From Candidatus Stahliibacteriota bacterium (lineage in GTDB: Bacteria > Hydrothermota > Tepidihabitantia > SM23-42): a stretch of 64,000 nt of DNA. A program made the position numbers and the translations under genes. The notes under the pieces are model-generated. The model did not search any database. It was not told the DNA's origin and saw nothing but the letters and a program-made list of their open reading frames with translations. Each line of letters opens with the position of its first letter. Positions within the stretch are counted from its first letter, which is position 1. The DNA lies in contig JAUWCU010000003.1 in assembly GCA_030609135.1 (NCBI GenBank), positions 55 through 64,054 of the forward strand, given 5' to 3'. This document shows, piece by piece, positions 1-63,458 of this stretch.

Positions 1-2372
1 GTAGCCGTATACGGGAACCCCGAATGATATGAGATTATGAAATCTGTGGAAAAATCCCTTAGTGGACTGAGATAGAAATCATCAGGGAGCATAATTCCAA
101 CGCTTGAATTTACAATGTGTCGTTCATCAAAATCCAACCAGTAATCAATCCGTGGTAAGGCGTATTCACCAGATATTGGATCCGGACCTCCAACATAAAC
201 ATCATAATAATGCTGCCAGGCATAAGAAGCAGTACCTTTGGCAAATTGCAATGTATAGGACAAATCAAAACGCCAGTAATCCAACATCTTTTTCTTGATA
301 GTAAATTCAATACCTTTTACATTACCGTAGTCAACATTCGTAACCTGATAATAAGGATAAGGCTGGGACAGTACCCTACGTGTTTGAATGAGGTCGTAGA
401 TATCTTTGTAATAAGCAACAAAACCAAAGGCAAAAGCATCAGATATTTGATTCTCATAACCCAATTCATAGGCAATTGTTTTTTCAACTGTAAGGTCAGG
501 ATTGCCAAGGACTGAGTTATATCTATGGAGAAGTAACCAGACAACGACCGGATTGGTTGAACGATAGAGGTTGTGTGCTGTGGGGGTTTGAAAGAAATGC
601 CCATAATTGAACCGTAACTTTGATCTCTCGGTAATAGGCATTGAAAATCCGAGACGGGGAGAAAAACGCCATTTAGCTGGGTATTGAACCATGGTTGTGT
701 CATCCATGTCTGAAGGGTTGTTCAAACCACTTGCCTTTGAATCGAAATAGTCGTAGCGAAGACCGATTCGACAAATAATACCTTCAAAATCTACCCTGTC
801 CTGTAAATAGACGGCTATTTTCAAAGGGTTTTTTTCATAAATGTCCCAGAAAGGGATTCTTGCCCAGGGCAGGTTATTGTCAAACCAGCCCACATTTTGA
901 GACATCAGGCTAACCCCGGATTTAACTTCGTGTATTTTAGCGATTGATTTTGTGATAGAAAAAACTCCTTGATAATCACGGTTATATAAATACCTCCAGA
1001 GCCTATTATCGCCTACAGTATAATAAAAACCGGTTGCTCCAAACGGGTTATTTCTTAAACTTGCAGCATTACGCTTACTCCATTCCTCGTAATAATTCAT
1101 CATGGAATCAACAAGATAAAGTTTTATCAAGGAATCATCTTCCATTTCCATTAACAGTTCAGGAAAGTGGTTGGCTTTAAAAATGTAGTCATCATACCAT
1201 TGCCTGTTCGCAGCTGCTTCTGCTTCGAGATCTCTTACTGCGTAAAACCGGATTGATTTTGTGTAACCCAGTTTCGATTCCAAAACAGTATTCTTTGTTA
1301 ACATATAATTAAACGTCACACTGGCGAGATAATTCTTCAGAGTTTCCGCCGTATTACGTTCAAGATTGTATATGAAGCTGAGATTACCCCAGATGTCTTT
1401 GTAGTGTGCGAACTGTTCACGGGAATAGAATCCGGAAAGAGTAACCTTGCCTTTTGCACCGGGCAGACGATAAGATACTTTTCCACCTAACTTGTAATCA
1501 AACCTTTCAGATTGAATTTTATATTTTGCTGCTTCAAACGCATCAGTTATCAGTGCTTCACCCGAGATAAAATATCTAAAACGGGATTTCTCCAATGCTC
1601 CACCCCCGAGGCTTATCTCATAAAGATTGTATCCATAATTTATTTTATCCGAAGCAAAGACCTCGTCGGTAGTATAACGGAATCTGCCACTTGGTTTCGC
1701 AGAGCCTTCACGCGTTATGATGCTAACGATTCCGGATAGAGCTTCACCGTATTCTGCGTCAAAGCCCCCCGTGGTTATTGCAATTTCTTCAACCGCTTGT
1801 TTATTTATTTTCACTGACTGATGACCATAATGCGGTGCTTTAGTGAGTATTCCATCAACATAATAGGCGATTTCTGTATCCCGACCGCCCCGGACATGAA
1901 TTCCTCTTTCACTGGTTGATACACCTGCCTGCAGGGTGATAATTTCGTTAATATCGCTTATCGGCATCATGTCAATATCGTCACCCGTTATGGTCCTCTG
2001 GGTCTGCGTCTGGGTTTTAATAACCAAGGGTCTTTCCGCGTTAACAACTATTGGTTCCATGGTAATTACTGCGGGGCTCAGCGTAAAATTAACAAAAACT
2101 GTCTGGTCGGAAAAAACAATGGTGTTGGATTTCGACACCGTGTTATAACCCAAATAAGACGCGGTTATTGTATGCATACCCACTGGGACAAAAGGTACGA
2201 TGAATTCGCCCTCCAGATCAGTGGCAGCACCCAATTCTGTTTTTTCAATTACGACGTTCACCCCAACTAAGGCTTCGCCATCTTCATCAATTACTTTTCC
2301 TTTTACTTGTCCTGTATTCGATGCTATTACAAAAGAGAAGATTACACAAACCGCGATAAAACATCTCTTCAT
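1..2372 (-). CDS. TonB-dependent outer-membrane receptor (SusC/RagA-like; N-terminal carboxypeptidase-regulatory-like domain), partial. The C-terminus runs off the window start.
   Basis: Manual reverse-strand translation from ATG (complement of 2370-2372) preceded by GGAGG: MKRCFIAVCVIFSFVIASNTGQVKGKVIDEDGEALVGVNVVIEKTELGAATDLEGEFIV... This is a typical CarbopepD_reg-like N-terminus of SusC-type receptors. The open frame continues to position 1, so it has no stop in the window and is absent from the ORF track. Confidence 0.65.
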   Translation of the reverse strand, partial: MKRCFIAVCVIFSFVIASNTGQVKGKVIDEDGEALVGVNVVIEKTELGAATDLEGEFIVPFVPVGMHTITASYLGYNTVSKSNTIVFSDQTVFVNFTLSPAVITMEPIVVNAERPLVIKTQTQTQRTITGDDIDMMPISDINEIITLQAGVSTSERGIHVRGGRDTEIAYYVDGILTKAPHYGHQSVKINKQAVEEIAITTGGFDAEYGEALSGIVSIITREGSAKPSGRFRYTTDEVFASDKINYGYNLYEISLGGGALEKSRFRYFISGEALITDAFEAAKYKIQSERFDYKLGGKVSYRLPGAKGKVTLSGFYSREQFAHYKDIWGNLSFIYNLERNTAETLKNYLASVTFNYMLTKNTVLESKLGYTKSIRFYAVRDLEAEAAANRQWYDDYIFKANHFPELLMEMEDDSLIKLYLVDSMMNYYEEWSKRNAASLRNNPFGATGFYYTVGDNRLWRYLYNRDYQGVFSITKSIAKIHEVKSGVSLMSQNVGWFDNNLPWARIPFWDIYEKNPLKIAVYLQDRVDFEGIICRIGLRYDYFDSKASGLNNPSDMDDTTMVQYPAKWRFSPRLGFSMPITERSKLRFNYGHFFQTPTAHNLYRSTNPVVVWLLLHRYNSVLGNPDLTVEKTIAYELGYENQISDAFAFGFVAYYKDIYDLIQTRRVLSQPYPYYQVTNVDYGNVKGIEFTIKKKMLDYWRFDLSYTLQFAKGTASYAWQHYYDVYVGGPDPISGEYALPRIDYWLDFDERHIVNSSVGIMLPDDFYLSPLRDFSTDFIISYHSGFPYTA

Positions 2373-2532
2373 ACTTACCTCCAATTATAAATATATTAAC
2401 AAAAAATATACTTAAGTCAAGACCCAATAATCAAACGACCGAGAATTAAAAGTAGGGCATTTAAGCCCAGTATATCTCGAAGTTTTGAAGATGTGAGGCT
2501 CAGAACCTCTGAACAGATTGTTTAATAGCTGT

Positions 2533-8222: not shown

Positions 8223-8436
8223 TGTAGTTGCTCGATTCATCGAGCATTGCCTGATAAATCAGGGGACTACATTATGCCTGATTCAGCGTGGGCTTGAGCG
8301 TGGAAAGTGTAGTTGCTCGATTTGCCCATACTTTGTAGTTGCCCAATTTATTGGGCTTATGGCCATGTTCATGTCCGATAAATCCCGCAATTCTATTTAT
8401 AGAATTATAATACGAAGCGGGATAAATCGGAGAACT
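8223..8436. repeat. nested hairpin-repeat cluster upstream of the OMP-thi4 unit
   Basis: tgtagttgctcgattcatcgagca. gcctgataaatcagg. tgtagttgcccaatttattgggc. gataaatcccgcaattctatttatagaatt..gcgggataaat. Confidence 0.65.
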
Positions 8437-10987: not shown

Positions 10988-11148
10988 ATATCTATCCCCC
11001 TCTCTTTATCTCTCCCCCTTTGAAGGGGGAGAGAAAGGTGGGGGTTCGTTCGGAATTTACCGGACATTATTGTGATTCCTATGATTGAAAAATTGTCAAG
11101 CCCAGAAGGGCTTTCCCACAATATGTGGGAGCGGGCTGCCCGCGATTA

Positions 11149-16183: not shown

Positions 16184-16445
16184 AAGATTGTAGTGGTCGG
16201 ATTCATCCGACATTAATAAAAATGTGCAATAAATTGCACCGCTACAATTATTAATTGTACAACCATCTGAATATTGACATCTGTACTTTTTAATTTGTTC
16301 AAAGATAAACCCCGTAGGACATTTGCTGTCCAACGGGGTAAAGCCTTCTCCACGGTTCAAATTAGATACAAAAGCTTTTTGCTTTAGCAATAGCTGTTCT
16401 ATTTTATACATATCACCGCGGAGAAGACTTTACCATTATCTCTAT

Positions 16446-18437: not shown

Positions 18438-18719
18438 CCCCGTTAGAAATTCAAACGGCAAATTTATGATCTATCTATAAATATTTGTGTTTTTTAAATC
18501 ATTCAGGTTGTTTAAAAAGTCATTTTTCACTGGAGTAGAGCATTTATGCTCGCCCCGTTAAATAAAGGTATAGCAAAATGTTTTTGGTATAGTGAAATTA
18601 GTATTTAAACGGGGCTCGTGAAAAACGATGAAATTTCATTGCTTTTAACGGGGCTAAAGCCCCTACTCCACTAAATCAACAGCCTGATTAAATCATTTTT
18701 CTCGCAGTTATTGGGATTT

Positions 18720-21124: not shown

Positions 21125-21190
21125 TCTCTTAGATTAGCTTATATTATGAATAAATACGTGCAAGTCAAGGGGAAGCGGATAATTAGTCTC

Positions 21191-21318
21191 GTAATTGTTC
21201 AATTTTCAGTGGAGAAGCGTAGTTGCGACATTTATGGCGTCTATTTATGTGGCATATCGAGACTTTCTGCACGATGAATCGTGCGACTACAATGTTCCAC
21301 CAAGTTTTGAACAATTAC
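21191..21318. mobile_element. MITE-like element, copy 1 (12-bp terminal inverted repeats GTAATTGTTCAA / TTGAACAATTAC)
   Basis: A second copy lies at 62661-62818 with the same termini and internal blocks (gtagttgcgacatttatggcg ... cacgatgaatcgtgcgactaca ... ccaccaagttttgaaca). No coding capacity. Confidence 0.65.
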
Positions 21319-21326
21319 TTAGCCTC

Positions 21327-21354
21327 TTGACACCTTATTAACACTTGTTATAAT
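21327..21354 (+). promoter_or_regulatory. sigma70-type promoter (TTGACA-N16-TATAAT) giving a leaderless transcript for the downstream lipoprotein gene
   Basis: TTGACA at 21327-21332, TATAAT at 21349-21354, ATG at 21361 (6 nt after the -10, no SD). Confidence 0.5.
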
Positions 21355-21360
21355 ACTTAT

Positions 21361-22773
21361 ATGAAGAACATAGTATATATAGTTCTATCAGTAATTTTGG
21401 TCGTGAATTGTAGTGAAATGGAGACCAAGTGGGAAGTAAAATTCGAACCAGCAGGTCCAGGTAATTATCGAATCAATGGGATTTCTTCTTCAAAGACATA
21501 TACTACTCCAGACAACTACGACCACCGAGTCAAAGGAGTTCCTTGTTCAAGGACACATTCTTATGTTGTTACTGGGGCATTTTGGGAAGATAAGCAGGAA
21601 TCAGTCTGCATTACTGCAAACTATGATGCTAATGGTGAACTCATCTGGCACACAGTCTATGAATCGCATGGCTTGAAATCTTCGAAAGGAAATGCTATCC
21701 GTACCATCACAGGTGAAATTGAAGAGGTTAAACATGACATTTATGTACTAGCACAAACCACTGACTTAAAAGGTATCAACGCCGTAGTCCTGATACAATA
21801 TGACAGCCTTGGTAATATGCAATGGGACAAGGTTATTGAAAAATCCCGAGGAGAGATAACGAGTGTATTGCTGAACGACCACTTGAATAACCTCTATATA
21901 GCGGGCTGGACAAGTAATTCCGCAAATTCTACAGATATCTTCATTGCCAAATATCGACCTTCAGGAGAACTGGCTTGGTTGAACAAATATCATAACCCTC
22001 CTCTTGTTTTTAATACCTTAGTGTTTTGCTCTAGCAAGAATGACCAGTTTCTGGTTGCCGGTCATCTGAGACATAACAAGGATTTCTTTTTCATGAAATA
22101 TGATAGCCTTGGGAAACTTGTGCATCTGACAAAGTGCGAAACTTCTATGCAGGAGATTTCATTGGCAGATGCACAACTTGATGAACATGGTAATGTTTAT
22201 CTTCTGGGCACAACCCACAACAATAAAACTGGCAAGGATTACGTAACTGTAGTCTATGATAAAAACGACAGTCTCCTATTTGAGAAATGCTTTGATGGAC
22301 CAACGCATCATGACGATGTCGCCAATGCCTTGATTGTGGAGGATTCGTACGCGGGGTCATTGTATGTCTATGCTATCGGCAGCAGTGAGAACGAAAATGG
22401 CGTGAGTGAAGTGCTTACCGTGAAATATGATCTAACCGGCAACGAAATATGGACAAAAGCATTCAAGGGGAGAAAAAACGAATCAGCAAAACCCTATCTG
22501 CACGGTCCCAGAATAATCTATTCTCCAACACAGCACGGCGTCAATAATTTCTACATAACCGGATATGTGGGCGATGATGCATTGGTTTTGAAACACAATA
22601 CTAAAGGATTTATTTCCTGGTTTACAAGATACGCAAAGGTTGGCACAGTATGCAAGCCAACCGCATTCAGAAGTTTCTGCGTTGGTATAGAAAGCGTGTC
22701 AGATAAGGGGTCTGATGCATACTTAATAAAATTCGGAAAAACTGAACAGCTCGGCATTATCCGCTGGGATTAA
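21361..22773 (+). CDS. lipoprotein with beta-propeller-like repeats (SBBP/PQQ-like), hypothetical
   Basis: Signal plus lipobox (LVVNCSE). Repeated G-x-x-x-W blade-like motifs (GELIWHTVY, GNMQWDKVI, GELAWLNKY, GNEIWTKAF). Confidence 0.45.
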   Translation: MKNIVYIVLSVILVVNCSEMETKWEVKFEPAGPGNYRINGISSSKTYTTPDNYDHRVKGVPCSRTHSYVVTGAFWEDKQESVCITANYDANGELIWHTVYESHGLKSSKGNAIRTITGEIEEVKHDIYVLAQTTDLKGINAVVLIQYDSLGNMQWDKVIEKSRGEITSVLLNDHLNNLYIAGWTSNSANSTDIFIAKYRPSGELAWLNKYHNPPLVFNTLVFCSSKNDQFLVAGHLRHNKDFFFMKYDSLGKLVHLTKCETSMQEISLADAQLDEHGNVYLLGTTHNNKTGKDYVTVVYDKNDSLLFEKCFDGPTHHDDVANALIVEDSYAGSLYVYAIGSSENENGVSEVLTVKYDLTGNEIWTKAFKGRKNESAKPYLHGPRIIYSPTQHGVNNFYITGYVGDDALVLKHNTKGFISWFTRYAKVGTVCKPTAFRSFCVGIESVSDKGSDAYLIKFGKTEQLGIIRWD

Positions 22774-22826: not shown

Positions 22827-24278
22827 CTAATGAATTGTTTCTCGTATCAATTTTGTACTACGGCAGGATTTTCTTTTGATCGTAAATACTGCATGCATTT
22901 GTTTGGCTACAGCCCTTGCTTTTGATCGGTTGTCACAAATGATTTCTATTAAACATTCGCCTTTTTTTACATAATCACCGATTTTTTGGTTGACTTTAAA
23001 TCCACATGATGGGTCGATTTTGTCTTCCTTTTTAAGTCTACCCCCACCCAATTGTACGAGCAACATGCCGATATCAAAAGTATCAATATGATGTATATAC
23101 CCTGTTTGTTGTGCTTTGATTTTAATTCTATTTTTTGCTACTGGTAAACGTGAATAATCATCAATGATACGAACATCACCACCCTGATAATGAATAATCT
23201 CTTTAAATTTATTTAAGGCTTCACGGTTTGCTATCTTTTTCTCAAGGAGGTTTTTCCCGCCTTTAATTTTAGCGAGCTTAAGCATTGCCTTGCCAAGCTC
23301 GAACGTGACTTCCATCAAATCCTTTGGACCACTGCCCTTTAGCGCCTCGATCGTTTCAATAATCTCTAAAGAATTGCCTATATAGTTACCTAATGGATTA
23401 TTCATATCAGTTAGGATGGCGATGACTTTAACTTGGAATCCCCCGTTGCTTGCGGCGTGGGATGAGATATAATACTCCCTCTCCCTTGAGGGAGAGGGTA
23501 GGGGTGAGGGTGAAATTGAAAGTAAGATACCCTGCCCCAAGGGGCAGGGAGCTTCATTCTTTTTGCAACGAGAGTCTCGTTGCACTCCAAAGCGTTTGCC
23601 GATTTGAATCATGGTCCGCGCAAGCTTTTTTGCTTTTTTATAATCAGTCATGAATGCGCCACTGCCAAATTTCACATCGAGCACCAGACCATCGAGATTT
23701 TCAGCAAGTTTCTTAGACATTATGCTTGCGGCAATGAGAGGGATTGAATCAACCGTTGCTGTTACATCGCGCAAGGCATATATTTTTTTGTCAGCGGGCG
23801 CAATTTCTCCGGTTTGTCCAATCATGGCAACGCCAAGTCTTTTTAACTGGCGCTTGAATGCTTTGAGCGTTAGATTAGTACGAAACCCGGGGATTGATTC
23901 TAATTTGTCTAAAGTACCACCTGTATGACCCAGACCGCGACCCGAAATCATGGGCATACAGATACCACATGATGCCATCAAAGGTGCCAGAATAAGTGAT
24001 ACCTTATCACCGACCCCGCCCGTAGAATGCTTGTCGATCTTTGGCTTTTTAATTTCTGAAAGGTTGAGCATCTTTCCAGTGTGCATCATGGCTTGCATCA
24101 AATCAGTGGTTTCGTTAATATCCATACCCTGAAAATATACCGCCATTAAAAAGGCAGCCAGTTGATAGTCAGGGATATTGTGTTTTGTGTATTCAGAAAT
24201 CAGATACTTTATTTCGTGTTCATTTAATTTTTTACCATCACGTTTTTTACGAATAATATCAAGGACGCTAAATTCCAT
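22827..24278 (-). CDS. pdp: thymidine / pyrimidine-nucleoside phosphorylase carrying a ~50-aa in-frame insertion
   Basis: N-terminal region matches the family (DYQLAAFLMAVYFQGM, KHSTGGVGDKVSL, MISGRGLGHTGGTLDKLESIPGF). The C-terminal ...LTDMNNPLG block is also present. Between IGKRFG and VKVIAILTDM lies an extra segment encoded by three GC-rich hairpins (23434-23583). The likely start is Met29 (MEFSVLDIIRKKRDG). Confidence 0.85.
   Translation of the reverse strand: MEFSVLDIIRKKRDGKKLNEHEIKYLISEYTKHNIPDYQLAAFLMAVYFQGMDINETTDLMQAMMHTGKMLNLSEIKKPKIDKHSTGGVGDKVSLILAPLMASCGICMPMISGRGLGHTGGTLDKLESIPGFRTNLTLKAFKRQLKRLGVAMIGQTGEIAPADKKIYALRDVTATVDSIPLIAASIMSKKLAENLDGLVLDVKFGSGAFMTDYKKAKKLARTMIQIGKRFGVQRDSRCKKNEAPCPLGQGILLSISPSPLPSPSREREYYISSHAASNGGFQVKVIAILTDMNNPLGNYIGNSLEIIETIEALKGSGPKDLMEVTFELGKAMLKLAKIKGGKNLLEKKIANREALNKFKEIIHYQGGDVRIIDDYSRLPVAKNRIKIKAQQTGYIHHIDTFDIGMLLVQLGGGRLKKEDKIDPSCGFKVNQKIGDYVKKGECLIEIICDNRSKARAVAKQMHAVFTIKRKSCRSTKLIRETIH
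23434..23583. repeat. triple-hairpin repeat element inserted in-frame within pdp
   Basis: Three consecutive hairpins: ccctctccc-ttga-gggagaggg, ccctgccc-caag-gggcaggg, ttgcaacgaga-g-tctcgttgcaa. Related GC-rich hairpins occur in intergenic DNA at about 11010-11033 and 25600-25640. Confidence 0.7.
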
Positions 24279-24912
24279 TACACCCCATAGCTTCGCGCAA
24301 TCGCTTGCACGATGCGCATTTACCGCACATTTCTTTTTTGCCAAGATAGCACGAGTAAACATATTGGACAGGCGCCTTGTATTTTAGTCCGAGTTTGTAG
24401 ATTTGTTTCTTTGTATATTCAAGAACAAAGCTCCTCACCTTAACCTTGGTAAGTGTGCTGAACATTAGGGCGTGGTTTATTGCTGCCATGAATTGTGGTC
24501 TGTTGTCCGGGAATTCTTCGGCTTCTTCGCGGTTAAACCCTGTAATAATGAACTCGGCGCCTAAATATTCTGCATAACACGCCGCAATATTTATGAAAAG
24601 ACCATTTCTGTTTGGAATCCAAACGTTCTTTAAGTTGCTAAATTTCCTAATCCTGACATTTTTGGACTGAAGCATAAGGAGTTTCTTGAATTCTTTGAAA
24701 AAAGGTATTTTGATAACCTTGTGTTTGATTTGTAATGCCTTACATATCTTTCTGGATGCGGAAATTTCCATTTTTGCAGCCCGTTGGCCATAATCAAATG
24801 TTAGCGCAAATAGCGGTCTTGTTTTCTTCTTGGCTATTGTCGCGCTGACTAAGGAGTCAAGACCGCCGGATAGGAGGATGATGCTCTTCAATTGGCGAGA
24901 TTGCTTCGTCAT
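24268..24912 (-). CDS. queC: 7-cyano-7-deazaguanine synthase QueC
   Basis: PP-loop SIILLSGGLDS. C-terminal zinc-binding Cys cluster CGKCASCKRL. The ORF-track N-terminal extension (to 25101) is translated from repeat DNA, so the start is more likely the internal Met (MTKQSRQLK...). Confidence 0.85.
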   Translation of the reverse strand: MTKQSRQLKSIILLSGGLDSLVSATIAKKKTRPLFALTFDYGQRAAKMEISASRKICKALQIKHKVIKIPFFKEFKKLLMLQSKNVRIRKFSNLKNVWIPNRNGLFINIAACYAEYLGAEFIITGFNREEAEEFPDNRPQFMAAINHALMFSTLTKVKVRSFVLEYTKKQIYKLGLKYKAPVQYVYSCYLGKKEMCGKCASCKRLREAMGCNGI

Positions 24913-25533: not shown

Positions 25534-25804
25534 TATCTCCCCCTAATATAAAACACCTCCACCCACTGAAACAATACTGAAATGATATTCAGCACAAGGT
25601 TCAGGGCAAGCTTTTTCCTCCCCCTTCCAGGGGGAGGAAGACAGTTTGCAGTCTTTTCCTTGTGGGAAAGCCCTTCTGGGCTTGATATTCGCGGGCAGCC
25701 CGCGCCGCTTCGCAAGGCGAGGCCGGGCAAGCCCGCTCCCACTATGCAAATGCCTAAAACACCTAAACCCCGTTAGATGTGTACTATCTAAATGGGGTAA
25801 ACAC

Positions 25805-29472: not shown

Positions 29473-29811
29473 GCCCAGATTATATGGAAAAATCCCTCAA
29501 TGTAAAGTATATTCATAAATCTGACATGTTGTAGTCCTGACAGGCATTTGCAGAGTAAACTCTGCCACTACAGAATGTGCGAAATATCACTGTCCCGCTA
29601 TGCGGGATCTTCGATTTTCCTATAGTGTATGCTAATATGATAAATCCCGCAATTCAATTTATAGAATTACAATACGAAGCGGGATAAATAGGGCGGAGAG
29701 AGTAGATGGAGTGCAACGGCTTGCCGTTGCATGCAGTAGCAAGCTACTGCACTCCGTAGCAAAATCAAGGGATAAGGGATAAAGATGTGTCCAAGGTTTC
29801 TTAATTAAAAG

Positions 29812-32138: not shown

Positions 32139-32404
32139 CGAACAATAATGATTTTATACTTCGAGCGACCATGAGTTTTACGAATGAGAGTCGAGAATCG
32201 AGCGTTAATAATTGTAGTTGTCCAATTTATTGGACAAAACCTGATAAATCCCGCAATCCTATTCATAACATCATAACACGAAGCGGGATAAATCACCTGT
32301 CTGCGTGCGATGCACAGGCAGGCCTGTCTACCTCAGGCAGAGGCGACTCGAACAATAATGATTTTATACTTCGAGCGACCATGAGCTTTACGAATGAGAG
32401 TCGA
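32139..32404. repeat. composite repeat locus: 56-bp direct repeats (32139-32194 and 32349-32404) flanking three nested hairpin-repeat modules
   Basis: The direct repeat is cgaacaataatgattttatacttcgagcgaccatgag(t/c)tttacgaatgagagtcga. The interior holds a GTAG-headed hairpin (tgtagttgtccaatttattggaca), a GATAAATCCCGC...GCGGGATAAAT palindrome, and cacctgtctgcgtgcgatgcacaggcagg. Confidence 0.6.
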
Positions 32405-34026: not shown

Positions 34027-34473
34027 CTGCAAATACGTCTTCAACAATTCAACAGGACTATTGTCATTACGAGTGTAGTCGAGAACCCTCAACATGATTA
34101 TTGTTCCTCTCACCTTGTTCGAGACAGGCGAGCGAAGTTGAGAACTTCCGCAATATGGGTGATGGCCCTAGATAAAAATGTCATTGCGAAGGCGTAGCCT
34201 GAAGCAATCTCACCTCCTTTTGTCAATCAAGCGCGTGAGGGCATAGTATTTGTAGTGGTCGAGTTTACTCGACAAACATCCCTGCACGCTACGGTATTTG
34301 TGCAGAGCAAGCTCTGCCACTACATATGTTGGGGTAGGTCTTTACACGAGCGGGACTCTGTTTCATGTCATTGCGAATCCGCCGCGTCATATAGCGGACA
34401 AAGTCCCGCAATGCAAGGATCCTCGATTTTCATTTATTAGAAATATATAGTACGGAAAATCGGGATAGTCTCA

Positions 34474-36373: not shown

Positions 36374-36391
36374 TCCAGGTAAGTTTATAGT

Positions 36392-37080
36392 ATTCGTAGT
36401 GGTCGAGTTCACTCGACAAACATCCTTGCACGCCACGGTATTTGTGCAGAGCAAGCTCTGCCACTACATGTGTTCTTGATTCGTTCCAGTATCCAACCCA
36501 AACCCTTTTTCCATACTCACAGTTATAGTCGCTCGATTCATCGAGCCAATCTAATGGAGCGTCTGATAAATCAGACAACTACAAAGATTAATCAAATTGT
36601 TACATCATATCATTGTAGTTGCTCGATTCATCGAGCCAATTTACGCGGAAAGCCCCTCAGACTAGCATAATTACTGTTTCTCTCACCTTGTTCGAGACAG
36701 GCGAGCGAAGTCGAGAACCACCCTTTGCATTTTTCGCCGCCCAATTCATCCCGCTTCGTATTGTAATTCTATAAATAGAATTGCGGGATTTATCGGGCCA
36801 ATTTACGCGGAAGTATGTAGTCGCTCGATTCATCGAGCCAATCTAATGGAGCGTCTGATAAATCAGACAACTACAGCGCAGCGTATCTTCAGTGAAACGT
36901 GTCTCCAGCGTAGCGTGTCTTCAACAGAGTGTGTTCTCCATTTCTCCCATACTCCTTTTGTCGATCAAACGCGTGAGGGCATAGTATTTGTAGTGGTCGA
37001 GTTTACTCGACAAACATCCCTGCACGCTACGGTATTTGTGCAGAGCAAGCTCTGCCACTACATGTGTTCGGAATTCCTAA
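36392..37080. repeat. largest cluster of nested small hairpin repeats (about 700 bp, non-coding)
   Basis: Multiple GTAG-headed hairpins (tgtagtggtcgagttcactcgac, tgtagttgctcgattcatcgagc x3, tgtagttgtctgatttatcagac x2). One reversed GATAAATCCCGC element. The tctcaccttgttcgagacaggcgagcgaagtcgagaac element (also at 34100-34145). Duplicated 75-bp block 36392-36466 = 36985-37060. ORFs called here (36153, 36351, 36470, 36846) are repeat-derived. Confidence 0.7.
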
Positions 37081-39016: not shown

Positions 39017-39382
39017 GTCTGCTGTCATTGCGTAAGTATTTAATAATTGTAGTGGTCGAGTTTACTCGACAAATATCCTTCACGCTGCTTTTGCCCAACT
39101 GTAGTTGCCTCTGCCTGAGGCAGACAGGCCTGCCTGTGCGTCGCACGCAGACAGGTGATTTATCAGGCTGCATCAATCCGCCATCTTATGTCATTGTGAA
39201 GGCGAAGTCCGAAGCAATCTCCAAAAAAGAGATCGCTTCGTTCACACTCGCGATGACAGGAAAAAAATGTTACTGCGAGCGGAATCGAGAACCTTCAGCA
39301 GTAGTATAATATTGTTCTCTCCGTTGCTCCGATACTCCCTTTCACCGTTTCTCCCATTCTCCTGTTCTTGCCCGTTATCACG

Positions 39383-61346: not shown

Positions 61347-61420
61347 ATCTAGATAGTATAATAAAATTAGTACCGAAGTCAATACGTCAACATCACTAAT
61401 CTGGTCTTGACTTTTTTTGA

Positions 61421-61507
61421 ATAATATCTGTAGTGTTAGAATACGATATGGGATTAATATCTTTGAGGAGGATTTTTGGGCGATCAAGGATACGTTAAAC
61501 CGTCTCT
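61421..61507. repeat. direct repeat A (~85 bp, imperfect); partner at 62521-62598
   Basis: ataatatctgta..gaata...gatgggattaatatcttt(c)aaggaggatttttgggcgatcaa(g/t)gatacgtta. The core 61449-61507 and 62549-62598 are near-identical. Confidence 0.7.
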
Positions 61508-61618
61508 TGCAAGATACCAATGCATAAACAACTTTTCGTTGATCAAAAAAACCGTTTTCGGTATTGTAAATATGTATGTACTTGCGGATTTCATGGGATG
61601 AATAAAGGCGGAATATTA

Positions 61619-62598: not shown

Positions 62599-62660
62599 TG
62601 ATTCAATTGGTTCTTTGATAGAGCGGCAATGATCATAATGGTTGGGATGATATGTTACAT

Positions 62661-62818
62661 GTAACTGTTCAATTTTCGGTGGAAACTTGTAGTTGCGACA
62701 TTTATGGCGCATATTTGTTTTAAATTTCAAGACATTTTGCACGATGAATCGTGCGACTACACCCCGCCATTTTGTAAAAGAGCGGGGTACATTAGTCCAC
62801 CAAGTTTTGAACAGTTAC
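62661..62818. mobile_element. MITE-like element, copy 2 (with a 30-bp internal hairpin insert ccccgccattttgtaaaagagcgggg)
   Basis: Same terminal inverted repeats and internal blocks as 21191-21318. Confidence 0.65.
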
Positions 62819-62876
62819 TGTTGTCTCTTGACATAGATTCCATATTCTGTATAATTTTATACAGAAGAAGGGAACT

Positions 62877-63458
62877 ATGAAGGCGATAGAAATAATCCAG
62901 AAAATCGGCAGGTTAAACTGCCGGGTTGTGAGTATCCGCGACCTCGCGAAATTGACCAATACATATAATGATAATACTCTTTATAAAATCGTAGAAAGGT
63001 TGATAAAAAACGGGATTCTCACACGAATAGCCCCTGGTTTATATATGCGAAGTGACAACACTCCGGAATCGTTCGAGATTGCAAATGTACTCTATGGACC
63101 ATCATATGTTTCCCTTGAATCGGCCCTTTATCGATACGGAGTCATTGCCCAGGCACCATACACTATTACATCGGTGACACCACGAAAAACAAAGAAGAAA
63201 ACAGTTTTTGGTCATGAATATGAATATGTACACCTGAATCCAAAATTTTTTTTTGGATATATACGTGATAAAAATATCCTCATTGCTGTTCAGGAAAAAG
63301 CATTACTTGATTTGCTATACCTCGTTTCAAAAAAGACACGAAGTATTAACTTAAATAACCTCGATTGGACCACAGTACGGAAGAACGTGTTTAATAGATA
63401 TGCACGATTATATAAATACAATCCACTGGCTCATTTGATTAAAAGGATTAGACCGTGA
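62877..63458 (+). CDS. abiEi: AbiEi-family antitoxin / transcriptional regulator (type IV toxin-antitoxin system)
   Basis: 193 aa. N-terminal winged-helix-like region. 4-nt overlap (GTGA) with the downstream nucleotidyltransferase gene. Consensus promoter TTGACA-N16-TATAAT at about 62826-62853. Confidence 0.6.
   Translation: MKAIEIIQKIGRLNCRVVSIRDLAKLTNTYNDNTLYKIVERLIKNGILTRIAPGLYMRSDNTPESFEIANVLYGPSYVSLESALYRYGVIAQAPYTITSVTPRKTKKKTVFGHEYEYVHLNPKFFFGYIRDKNILIAVQEKALLDLLYLVSKKTRSINLNNLDWTTVRKNVFNRYARLYKYNPLAHLIKRIRP

Follow-up and report, generated by a model that had tools for sequence, protein, structure and literature searches.

A probable MITE family with a REPIN-like core, found upstream of promoters in the WOR-3/Stahlbacteria lineage

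MITEs and REPINs are usually regarded as separate classes, the former depending on DDE transposases and the latter, reportedly described by Bertels and Rainey in 2011, on Y1/HUH transposases. Among the GTAG-tagged REPs, the GTAG-1/2 families form head-head heterodimers with a 20-100 bp spacer (Di Nocera 2013, PMC3733652). Published ends of IS66-family elements begin GTAAGCG... or GTAACCG... (PMC12888890, PMC12898284), and ISDge4, a member of the ISBst12 group, has the end GTAACTGCTCAGCA and an 8-bp direct repeat (PMC12898284). Here we describe an element that joins the ends and footprint of a MITE to a REPIN core, in a candidate phylum (WOR-3/Stahlbacteria) without cultured genetics.

The element was noticed in a single stretch of 64 kb, the whole of which we call the window, where an earlier note made from the letters alone had described a 128-bp MITE-like unit in two copies, the second with a nested hairpin insertion. 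A profile search of the 64-kb window recovers exactly two full copies, at 21191-21318 and 62661-62818 as the earlier note had placed them, and the two align over the whole unit, with an extra 30 nt in copy 2. Their features, and those of the flanking sequence, are as follows.

21183..21190, forward strand: left target-site duplication of copy 1, TTAGTCTC, a direct repeat of 21319-21326 with 7/8 identical
21191..21318, forward strand: probable MITE copy 1, the canonical 128-bp form
21191..21202, forward strand: left terminal inverted repeat (TIR) of copy 1, GTAATTGTTCAA; an imperfect repeat runs on to about 21213 through GTGGA
21219..21240, forward strand: left REP unit of copy 1, with GTAG head, 2 nt, an imperfect 7-bp stem and a 2-nt loop
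21269..21290, reverse strand: right REP unit of copy 1, GTAGTCGCACGATTCATCGTGC, with a perfect 7-bp stem
21307..21318, forward strand: right TIR of copy 1, TTGAACAATTAC
21319..21326, forward strand: right target-site duplication of copy 1, TTAGCCTC
21327..21354, forward strand: host promoter by copy 1, TTGACA-N16-TATAAT, 12/12, driving the lipoprotein gene 21361-22773 and kept in element-free orthologues
62653..62660, forward strand: left target-site duplication of copy 2, TGTTACAT, 5/8 against 62819-62826 and 7/8 against the right flank of the orthologous locus L133, TGTTACCT
62661..62818, forward strand: probable MITE copy 2, 158 bp, the 128-bp form plus a 30-nt module
62689..62710, forward strand: left REP unit of copy 2
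62739..62760, reverse strand: right REP unit of copy 2
62762..62791, forward strand: optional 30-nt module of copy 2, the hairpin CCCCGCCATTTTGTAAAAGAGCGGGG plus a repeated TACA
62819..62826, forward strand: right target-site duplication of copy 2, TGTTGTCT
62828..62855, forward strand: host promoter by copy 2, TTGACA-N16-TATAAT, 12/12, driving the gene 62877-63458

Both copies have 12-bp terminal inverted repeats that begin GTAA, and the internal blocks said to be common to them, GTAGTTGCGACATTTATGGCG and TGCACGATGAATCGTGCGACTACA (21- to 24-nt blocks), are indeed identical, with 0 chance matches expected in the window. The termini had been called identical as well; in fact they read GTAATTGTTCAA...TTGAACAATTAC in copy 1 versus GTAACTGTTCAA...TTGAACAGTTAC in copy 2, with one substitution per arm, and these substitutions are complementary (AATT/AATT in copy 1, AACT/AGTT in copy 2). 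The gene context agrees with that already described for the two copies: copy 1 lies between a phoB-type response regulator (PF00072/PF00486) and the lipoprotein gene, and copy 2 has MNT (PF18765) and HepT (PF01934) upstream and AbiEii downstream, the gene 62877-63458, which is without a Pfam match, coming before AbiEii. The element has no coding capacity, as had been stated; the sole open reading frame, of 58 aa, runs across copy 2 and is missing from copy 1.

Beyond the window, full-length members of the family were found at many loci with a profile built from 10 copies. Relatives complete with the outer arms occur in WOR-3/Stahlbacteria MAGs (loci L071, L076, L089, L094, and L107) and in the majority of the 24 metagenome contigs with a conserved 24-mer in common, so that related genomes and metagenomes together give about 20 independent loci; this sample includes several loci from one metagenome population and is not a whole genome. 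Among the extracted copies, length ranges from 128 to 295 bp and is exactly 128 bp in 10/18, with a mean identity of 93%. The TIR, GTAAYTGTTCAA, is perfect over 12 bp from its GTAA start and reaches about 23 bp when imperfect positions are included; across 10 copies, 93% of cells in the 12-bp arms are paired. The short-read contigs for both neighbouring genes stop inside the element, as expected for a repeat. Moreover, the contig Ga0209986_10003080 (L124:92-2565) is 96% identical to window positions 1-2469 and reaches beyond the left end of the window, where L124 holds another copy about 4 kb outside it, so that the host population has more than two copies.

The element is flanked by target-site duplications of 8 bp whose sequence varies from site to site. 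They are perfect at seven loci (TCAATATT, AAAAACAT, CCATTTTA, AGTTTGAT, ATCGATTT, ATATTTTC, and ATTTAGCT) and match at 7/8 at three further loci, copy 1 of the window included, so that 10 of the 16 loci with both flanks reach at least 7/8, and the direct repeats overall average 6.4/8; control flanks paired across different loci have a mean of 2.4/8, and none of 240 reaches 7. A DDE transposase leaves duplications of this length and of variable sequence as its footprint. Duplications are poor in some copies (3/8 at L094, 1/8 at L142, and 3/8 at L139), and the flanks of L139 and L120 suggest recombination between copies, decay being another possible cause.

Empty sites were found as well. Orthologues of the lipoprotein gene downstream of copy 1 (57-86% identity; L143-L148) are preceded by ccTTGACAC-N15-TATAAT-N5/6-ATGAAGAAC, and no profile match to the element is listed in these loci; since the orthologous promoter is kept without the element, these are empty sites. 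Taken together, the inverted ends, the 8-bp duplications, the presence at about 20 unrelated loci and the empty orthologous sites make it highly probable that the 128-bp unit is a non-coding, non-autonomous cut-and-paste transposon (a MITE) with GTAA TIRs and an 8-bp target-site duplication. On these data, the WOR-3/Stahlbacteria lineage has a MITE family that is both genuine and new, and the MITE interpretation of the earlier note stands.

As to what moves it, GTAA ends combined with 8-bp duplications are the signature of the IS66 family, and on this ground the element would be moved in trans by a DDE transposase of that family (ISBst12-like); 10 of the first 14 bases of the element match the ISDge4 end. 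No autonomous IS bounded by such ends turned up in the window, the 148 loci or the viral collection. An inverted-repeat-pair search across all loci returned MITE-sized pairs only, the 23-nt arm scanned against the viral collection gave no match, and inspection of the N-termini of 55 ORFs of 330-650 aa in related loci revealed no obvious transposase. The assignment to the IS66 family is therefore putative.

The interior of the element is a REPIN-like core, in which two 22-nt REP hairpins of the GTAG type form a dimer with their heads outward. Each copy is built in five nested layers: the outer 12-bp GTAAYTGTTCAA, a short arm GTGGA/TCCAC, a GTAGT/ACTAC pair, and two hairpins inside. The REP units consist of GTAG, 2 nt, a 7-bp stem and a 2-nt loop, with the heads pointing outward, and the left and right units of copy 1 together make a 72-nt head-outward dimer. 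A scan of the window for similar hairpins finds 28 with GTAG or GTGG heads in 64 kb, about 21-22 of them canonical. These window REPs have in common a GTAGT.G head and an ATT(C/T)AT centre, with diverse stems that are each mutually complementary, and their consensus is GTAGTNGY + 5 nt + ATTYAT + the complementary 5 nt + RC. Many lie in head-outward pairs, for example at 16190-16245, 34252-34323, 36396-36467, and 36990-37061, and there is a dense cluster at 36390-37070.

Canonical REPs in the window: 2531-2552, 8224-8356, 16190-16245, 29550-29571, 32214-32235, 34252-34323, 36396-37061, 39049-39122

Similar REPs are widespread. A genome-collection scan with GTAGTYGCWCGATTCATCGWGC gave at least 115 loci, and the labels among the matches listed include Zixibacteria, Ignavibacteria, Nitrospinaceae, WOR-3/Stahlbacteria, Brocadiales, candidate-phyla-radiation groups, Actinomycetota, and others. 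Among the matches listed (L004-L118), the 22-nt REP sequences occur in MAGs labelled as about a dozen phyla, a spread that is unusual because REP families are usually lineage-specific. This breadth may be inflated by mis-binning, yet the matches listed include contigs of more than 100 kb and closed chromosomes, such as OZ250172.1 (Nitrospinaceae) and OY970208.1 (Zixibacteria). Three loci, from two Zixibacteria MAGs and one MAG labelled 'uncultured bacterium', hold REPtrons, in which a Y1 transposase gene has REP clusters of the window type on both sides.

L104:659-1105 (-): REPtron Y1 transposase
L017:567-980 (-): REPtron Y1 transposase
L098:7016-7453 (-): REPtron Y1 transposase

The three proteins are closely alike, 138-149 aa in length, and belong to the Y1 transposases (PF01797). 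That of L104 passes the cut-off of the RAYT model NCBIfam NF047646, and those of L017 and L098 have this model as their best match, below the cut-off. Because these Y1 genes are flanked by the same type of REP, the core of the element belongs to a RAYT-associated REP family.

The whole unit might accordingly be read as a plain REPIN, that is, a REP doublet copied via single-stranded DNA by a RAYT (Y1/HUH), its arms being an extension of the REPIN hairpin. The geometry of the core, which is that of a head-outward GTAG REP dimer like the other dimers in the window, is consistent with such an origin, as are the folding of the whole unit into one long single-stranded hairpin (z = -4.8 and -6.1) and the existence elsewhere of Y1 genes with the RAYT model as their best match and REPs of the core's type on their flanks. 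However, variable 8-bp duplications flank the 128-bp unit, and to our knowledge HUH/Y1 transposition (IS200/IS605, TnpA-REP) leaves no target duplication. Moreover, we looked for a RAYT in the window, in the loci with full elements, and in the lipoprotein-orthologue loci, and found none; L090, a locus from a different WOR-3 MAG with a partial match to the element only, encodes a 336-aa Y1 protein with a DnaA-like tail and has no flanking REPs. Ordinary REP dimers, which are without GTAA arms, are also without the promoter bias described below. A plain REPIN is therefore a very unlikely account of the unit: given the 8-bp duplications we do not class the whole as a REPIN, and the core alone is REPIN-like.

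The same strong predicted secondary structure could be that of a structured non-coding RNA gene, or of a REP element acting at the RNA level as a stabiliser or terminator, and a reading of this kind agrees with the few G-T wobble positions in the stems and with the location that the element would have, in the 3' untranslated region, wherever the upstream gene is co-directional. In both window copies, however, the upstream gene is divergent, so that no known transcript crosses the element. Searches of Rfam at the gathering threshold and at E <= 1 gave no match, and there is neither a promoter inside the element nor a T-run after it. Covariation among 10 copies is no better than in shuffled alignments (one pair changed on both sides, equalled by 284/500 shuffles) and thus leaves the RNA-gene reading unsupported. 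We consider an RNA function of this kind extremely improbable.

Copies of the MITE differ by whole hairpin modules, which are gained, lost or swapped in the core. The nested insertion claimed for copy 2 is borne out in this sense, the 30-nt block being one of several optional modules; it had been described as a 30-bp perfect hairpin, and is really a 26-nt hairpin (62762-62787) with a 6-bp stem and a 14-nt loop, plus a repeated TACA. L123, L126/L140, and L142 have the same CCCCGCC... block, which the orthologous copy L133/L138 lacks. A 27-nt hairpin, CCTGTCTGCGTGCGACGCACAGGCAGG, is nested within the left REP of the copies in L124, L131, L140, and L141, and also stands free in the window beside REPs, at 32296-32322 (+) and 39129-39155 (-); it may be a tiny mobile hairpin in its own right. 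In addition, some copies have a block of about 23 nt after CATTTATG, and three alternative spacers between the REPs are found among copies. The orthologue of copy 2 in L133/L138, with flanks 97% identical, has a different spacer and the 27-nt insert in addition to lacking the 30-nt block, which indicates that modules turn over faster than flanks diverge. Furthermore, L120 and L139 have their right flank in common and not their left, and this one-sided sharing suggests recombination between MITE copies that rearranges the genome; L125 and L142, which have similar left flanks at different loci, may be a further case.

Other repeats were noted in the window. Synteny with L147 identifies the ORF 22827-24362 (-) as the thymidine phosphorylase gene. 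It encodes 511 aa compared with 475 aa in the L147 orthologue and has, at 23440-23590 and in frame, an insert of some 150 nt that consists of three hairpins (CCCTCTCCCT/AGGGAGAGGG, CCCTGCCCC/GGGGCAGGG, and TGCAACGAGA/TCTCGTTGCA); it looks like an intragenic palindromic insertion. Short intergenic repeats (e.g., GTGGGAAAGCCCTTCTGGGCTT and GTAGGGGCTTTAGCCC) at 18614-18691, 25546-25640, and 61405-61523, and in the pairs 11098-11119 (-)/25662-25683 (+) and 18651-18666/24992-25007, recur in the related-strain contigs L124, L133, or L138 or occur twice in the window.

Nearly all copies of the MITE lie close above a pre-existing, near-consensus sigma-70 promoter and face it with the same end. A promoter scoring at least 9.5/12 follows the right end in 21 of the 23 evaluable right flanks, with the -35 box beginning either 7-9 or 14-15 nt past that end; these promoters are near-consensus TTGACA-N16/17-TATAAT, most of them TTGACA-N16-TATAAT. 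As a control, the left flanks were read outward and gave scores of 6-8.5, apart from L071, in which the promoter lies on the left, 4 nt away. With orthologous duplicates removed and loci counted by hand, about 18 of 20 independent loci follow the pattern. Among the flanks of ordinary REP dimers, just 4/178 have a strong promoter no more than 70 nt away, and on this count we rejected the promoter bias as a property of the REP core. At copy 1, the right TIR had been said to abut the -35 box; the gap is 8 nt there and 9 nt at copy 2, and the stretch between TIR and -35 box is the right-hand target-site duplication. In the 7-9 nt class generally, the 8-bp duplication touches the -35 box, and in the 14-15 nt class it lies 7 nt further off. 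We found no correlation, by eye, of insertion register with spacer or end variant, and no target consensus is visible in the duplication or the left flank.

Perfect promoters of this kind are also a feature of the window at large. Eleven TTGACA-N16/17-TATAAT promoters, nearly all with a 16-nt spacer, occur in the 64 kb, highly consensus-like promoters being a feature of the host genome.

Perfect promoters, forward strand: 2839, 21327, 29812, 29940, 34474, 37121, 39383, 42659, 53294, 62828
Perfect promoter, reverse strand: 53143

That of the lipoprotein gene ends 6 nt before the ATG, and its mRNA may therefore be leaderless.

The earlier note had proposed that the element may donate or displace a promoter. 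Donation does not hold. The core promoter is there at the empty sites too, and at the occupied ones the target-site duplication separates the -35 box from the element, so that we rejected a promoter supplied or carried by it; promoter prediction inside the element likewise gave none. Displacement is the part that may survive, in that the element would displace sequence upstream of about -45 without supplying the core promoter. A different view of the same arrangement takes the unit for a host regulatory segment (an operator, upstream element or insulator) that was duplicated together with its promoter and is not mobile. The strong promoter downstream and the single orientation would fit, yet the promoter spacers and the 7-15 nt beside the -35 box are unrelated between copies, the 8-bp direct repeats are different at every site, and the orthologous promoters work without the element. 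The downstream genes are unrelated too (sugar transferase, PorV, ABC ATPase, LolA, RsmF, aconitase, S49 peptidase, BNR protein, lipoprotein, and the gene before AbiEii), their starts lying 42-65 nt past the arm at most loci. Duplication of a host segment is thus barely credible.

For the MITE so placed, the promoter association may have one of two origins: insertion may be targeted to a promoter landmark with protein bound to it, or selection may favour copies whose right arm acts as an upstream element or insulator. At 18/19 loci the element faces the promoter in the same orientation (binomial p = 8e-5). The arms are identical over 12 nt, so that a symmetric transposase complex offers no obvious route to a fixed orientation, which needs either asymmetric, landmark-guided insertion or selection on the right arm beside the promoter. 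While purifying selection in a compact genome might by itself leave the same MITE adjacent to promoters, surviving in dispensable bases above the -35 box with neither targeting nor function, and intergenic spacers are indeed short, with the end of the upstream gene 6-43 nt from the left end of the element at some loci, the distances to the promoter fall into two tight classes (7-9 or 14-15 nt) and those on the other side range from about 6 to more than 200 nt; moreover, neutral tolerance does not predict the same orientation at 18/19 loci. We therefore consider survival through purifying selection unlikely as the sole cause. As a tentative alternative, and one that we hold to be possible rather than probable, the element or its unseen transposase uses the promoter (the -35 hexamer, or bound RNA polymerase/sigma) as a landmark, for oriented insertion in two registers about 8 and about 15 nt upstream. 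In a related reading, co-option may have turned the right arm into a portable insulator or upstream module for many housekeeping promoters. Oriented placement close to the -35 box would mean either that a transposon reads bacterial promoters or that a mobile hairpin has been recruited as promoter-upstream architecture.

What is new here is the chimeric build, with IS66-like GTAA arms around a REPIN-like core, together with the nested modules and the oriented placement above -35 boxes. In practical terms, short-read assemblies break at promoters because of the element, which also appears to mediate rearrangements. Similarly to MITEs of the IS66 family (ISBst12 group), it is short and non-coding, with GTAA inverted ends and an 8-bp target duplication; it differs from them in that its interior is a REP dimer and not IS-derived, and in that no cognate autonomous IS or IS66 transposase was found in the sequences searched. 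We know of no promoter-proximal, orientation-fixed insertion by IS66 elements. With GTAG REP dimers, REPINs and BIMEs it shares inverted GTAG hairpins with 2 nt following GTAG and a TY loop, set apart by a spacer of 20-100 bp (PMC3733652), and RAYT genes flanked by REPs of the core's type exist. REPs are reported mostly downstream of genes (PMC3733652), whereas the element lies upstream of promoters. The mobile unit described here, in contrast to those dimers, adds GTAA inverted repeats and 8-bp duplications.

Correia elements (CREE, Neisseria) and ERIC sequences (enterobacteria) are intergenic palindromes, about 100-155 bp long and bounded by inverted ends, which influence promoters or occur beside them, and the element resembles both as a palindromic intergenic repeat with inverted ends and a promoter association. 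While Correia elements duplicate TA and have promoter hexamers within their own ends, the element described here duplicates 8 bp and leaves the host promoter intact, and there is no sequence similarity. Insertion next to a landmark has precedents in IS5, which inserts upstream of glpFK and flhDC, and also in the IS1202 family. Members of that family insert beside dif sites, at 5 bp from the XerC side (PMC10132070). The likeness lies in a fixed distance and orientation relative to a protein-bound DNA landmark, and the difference in the putative landmark, here a sigma-70 -35 box, in the many genes involved, and in the two registers 6-7 nt apart. Ty3 and Tf1 are promoter-targeting retroelements, and promoter-landmark insertion, if true, would be the bacterial counterpart of their targeting.
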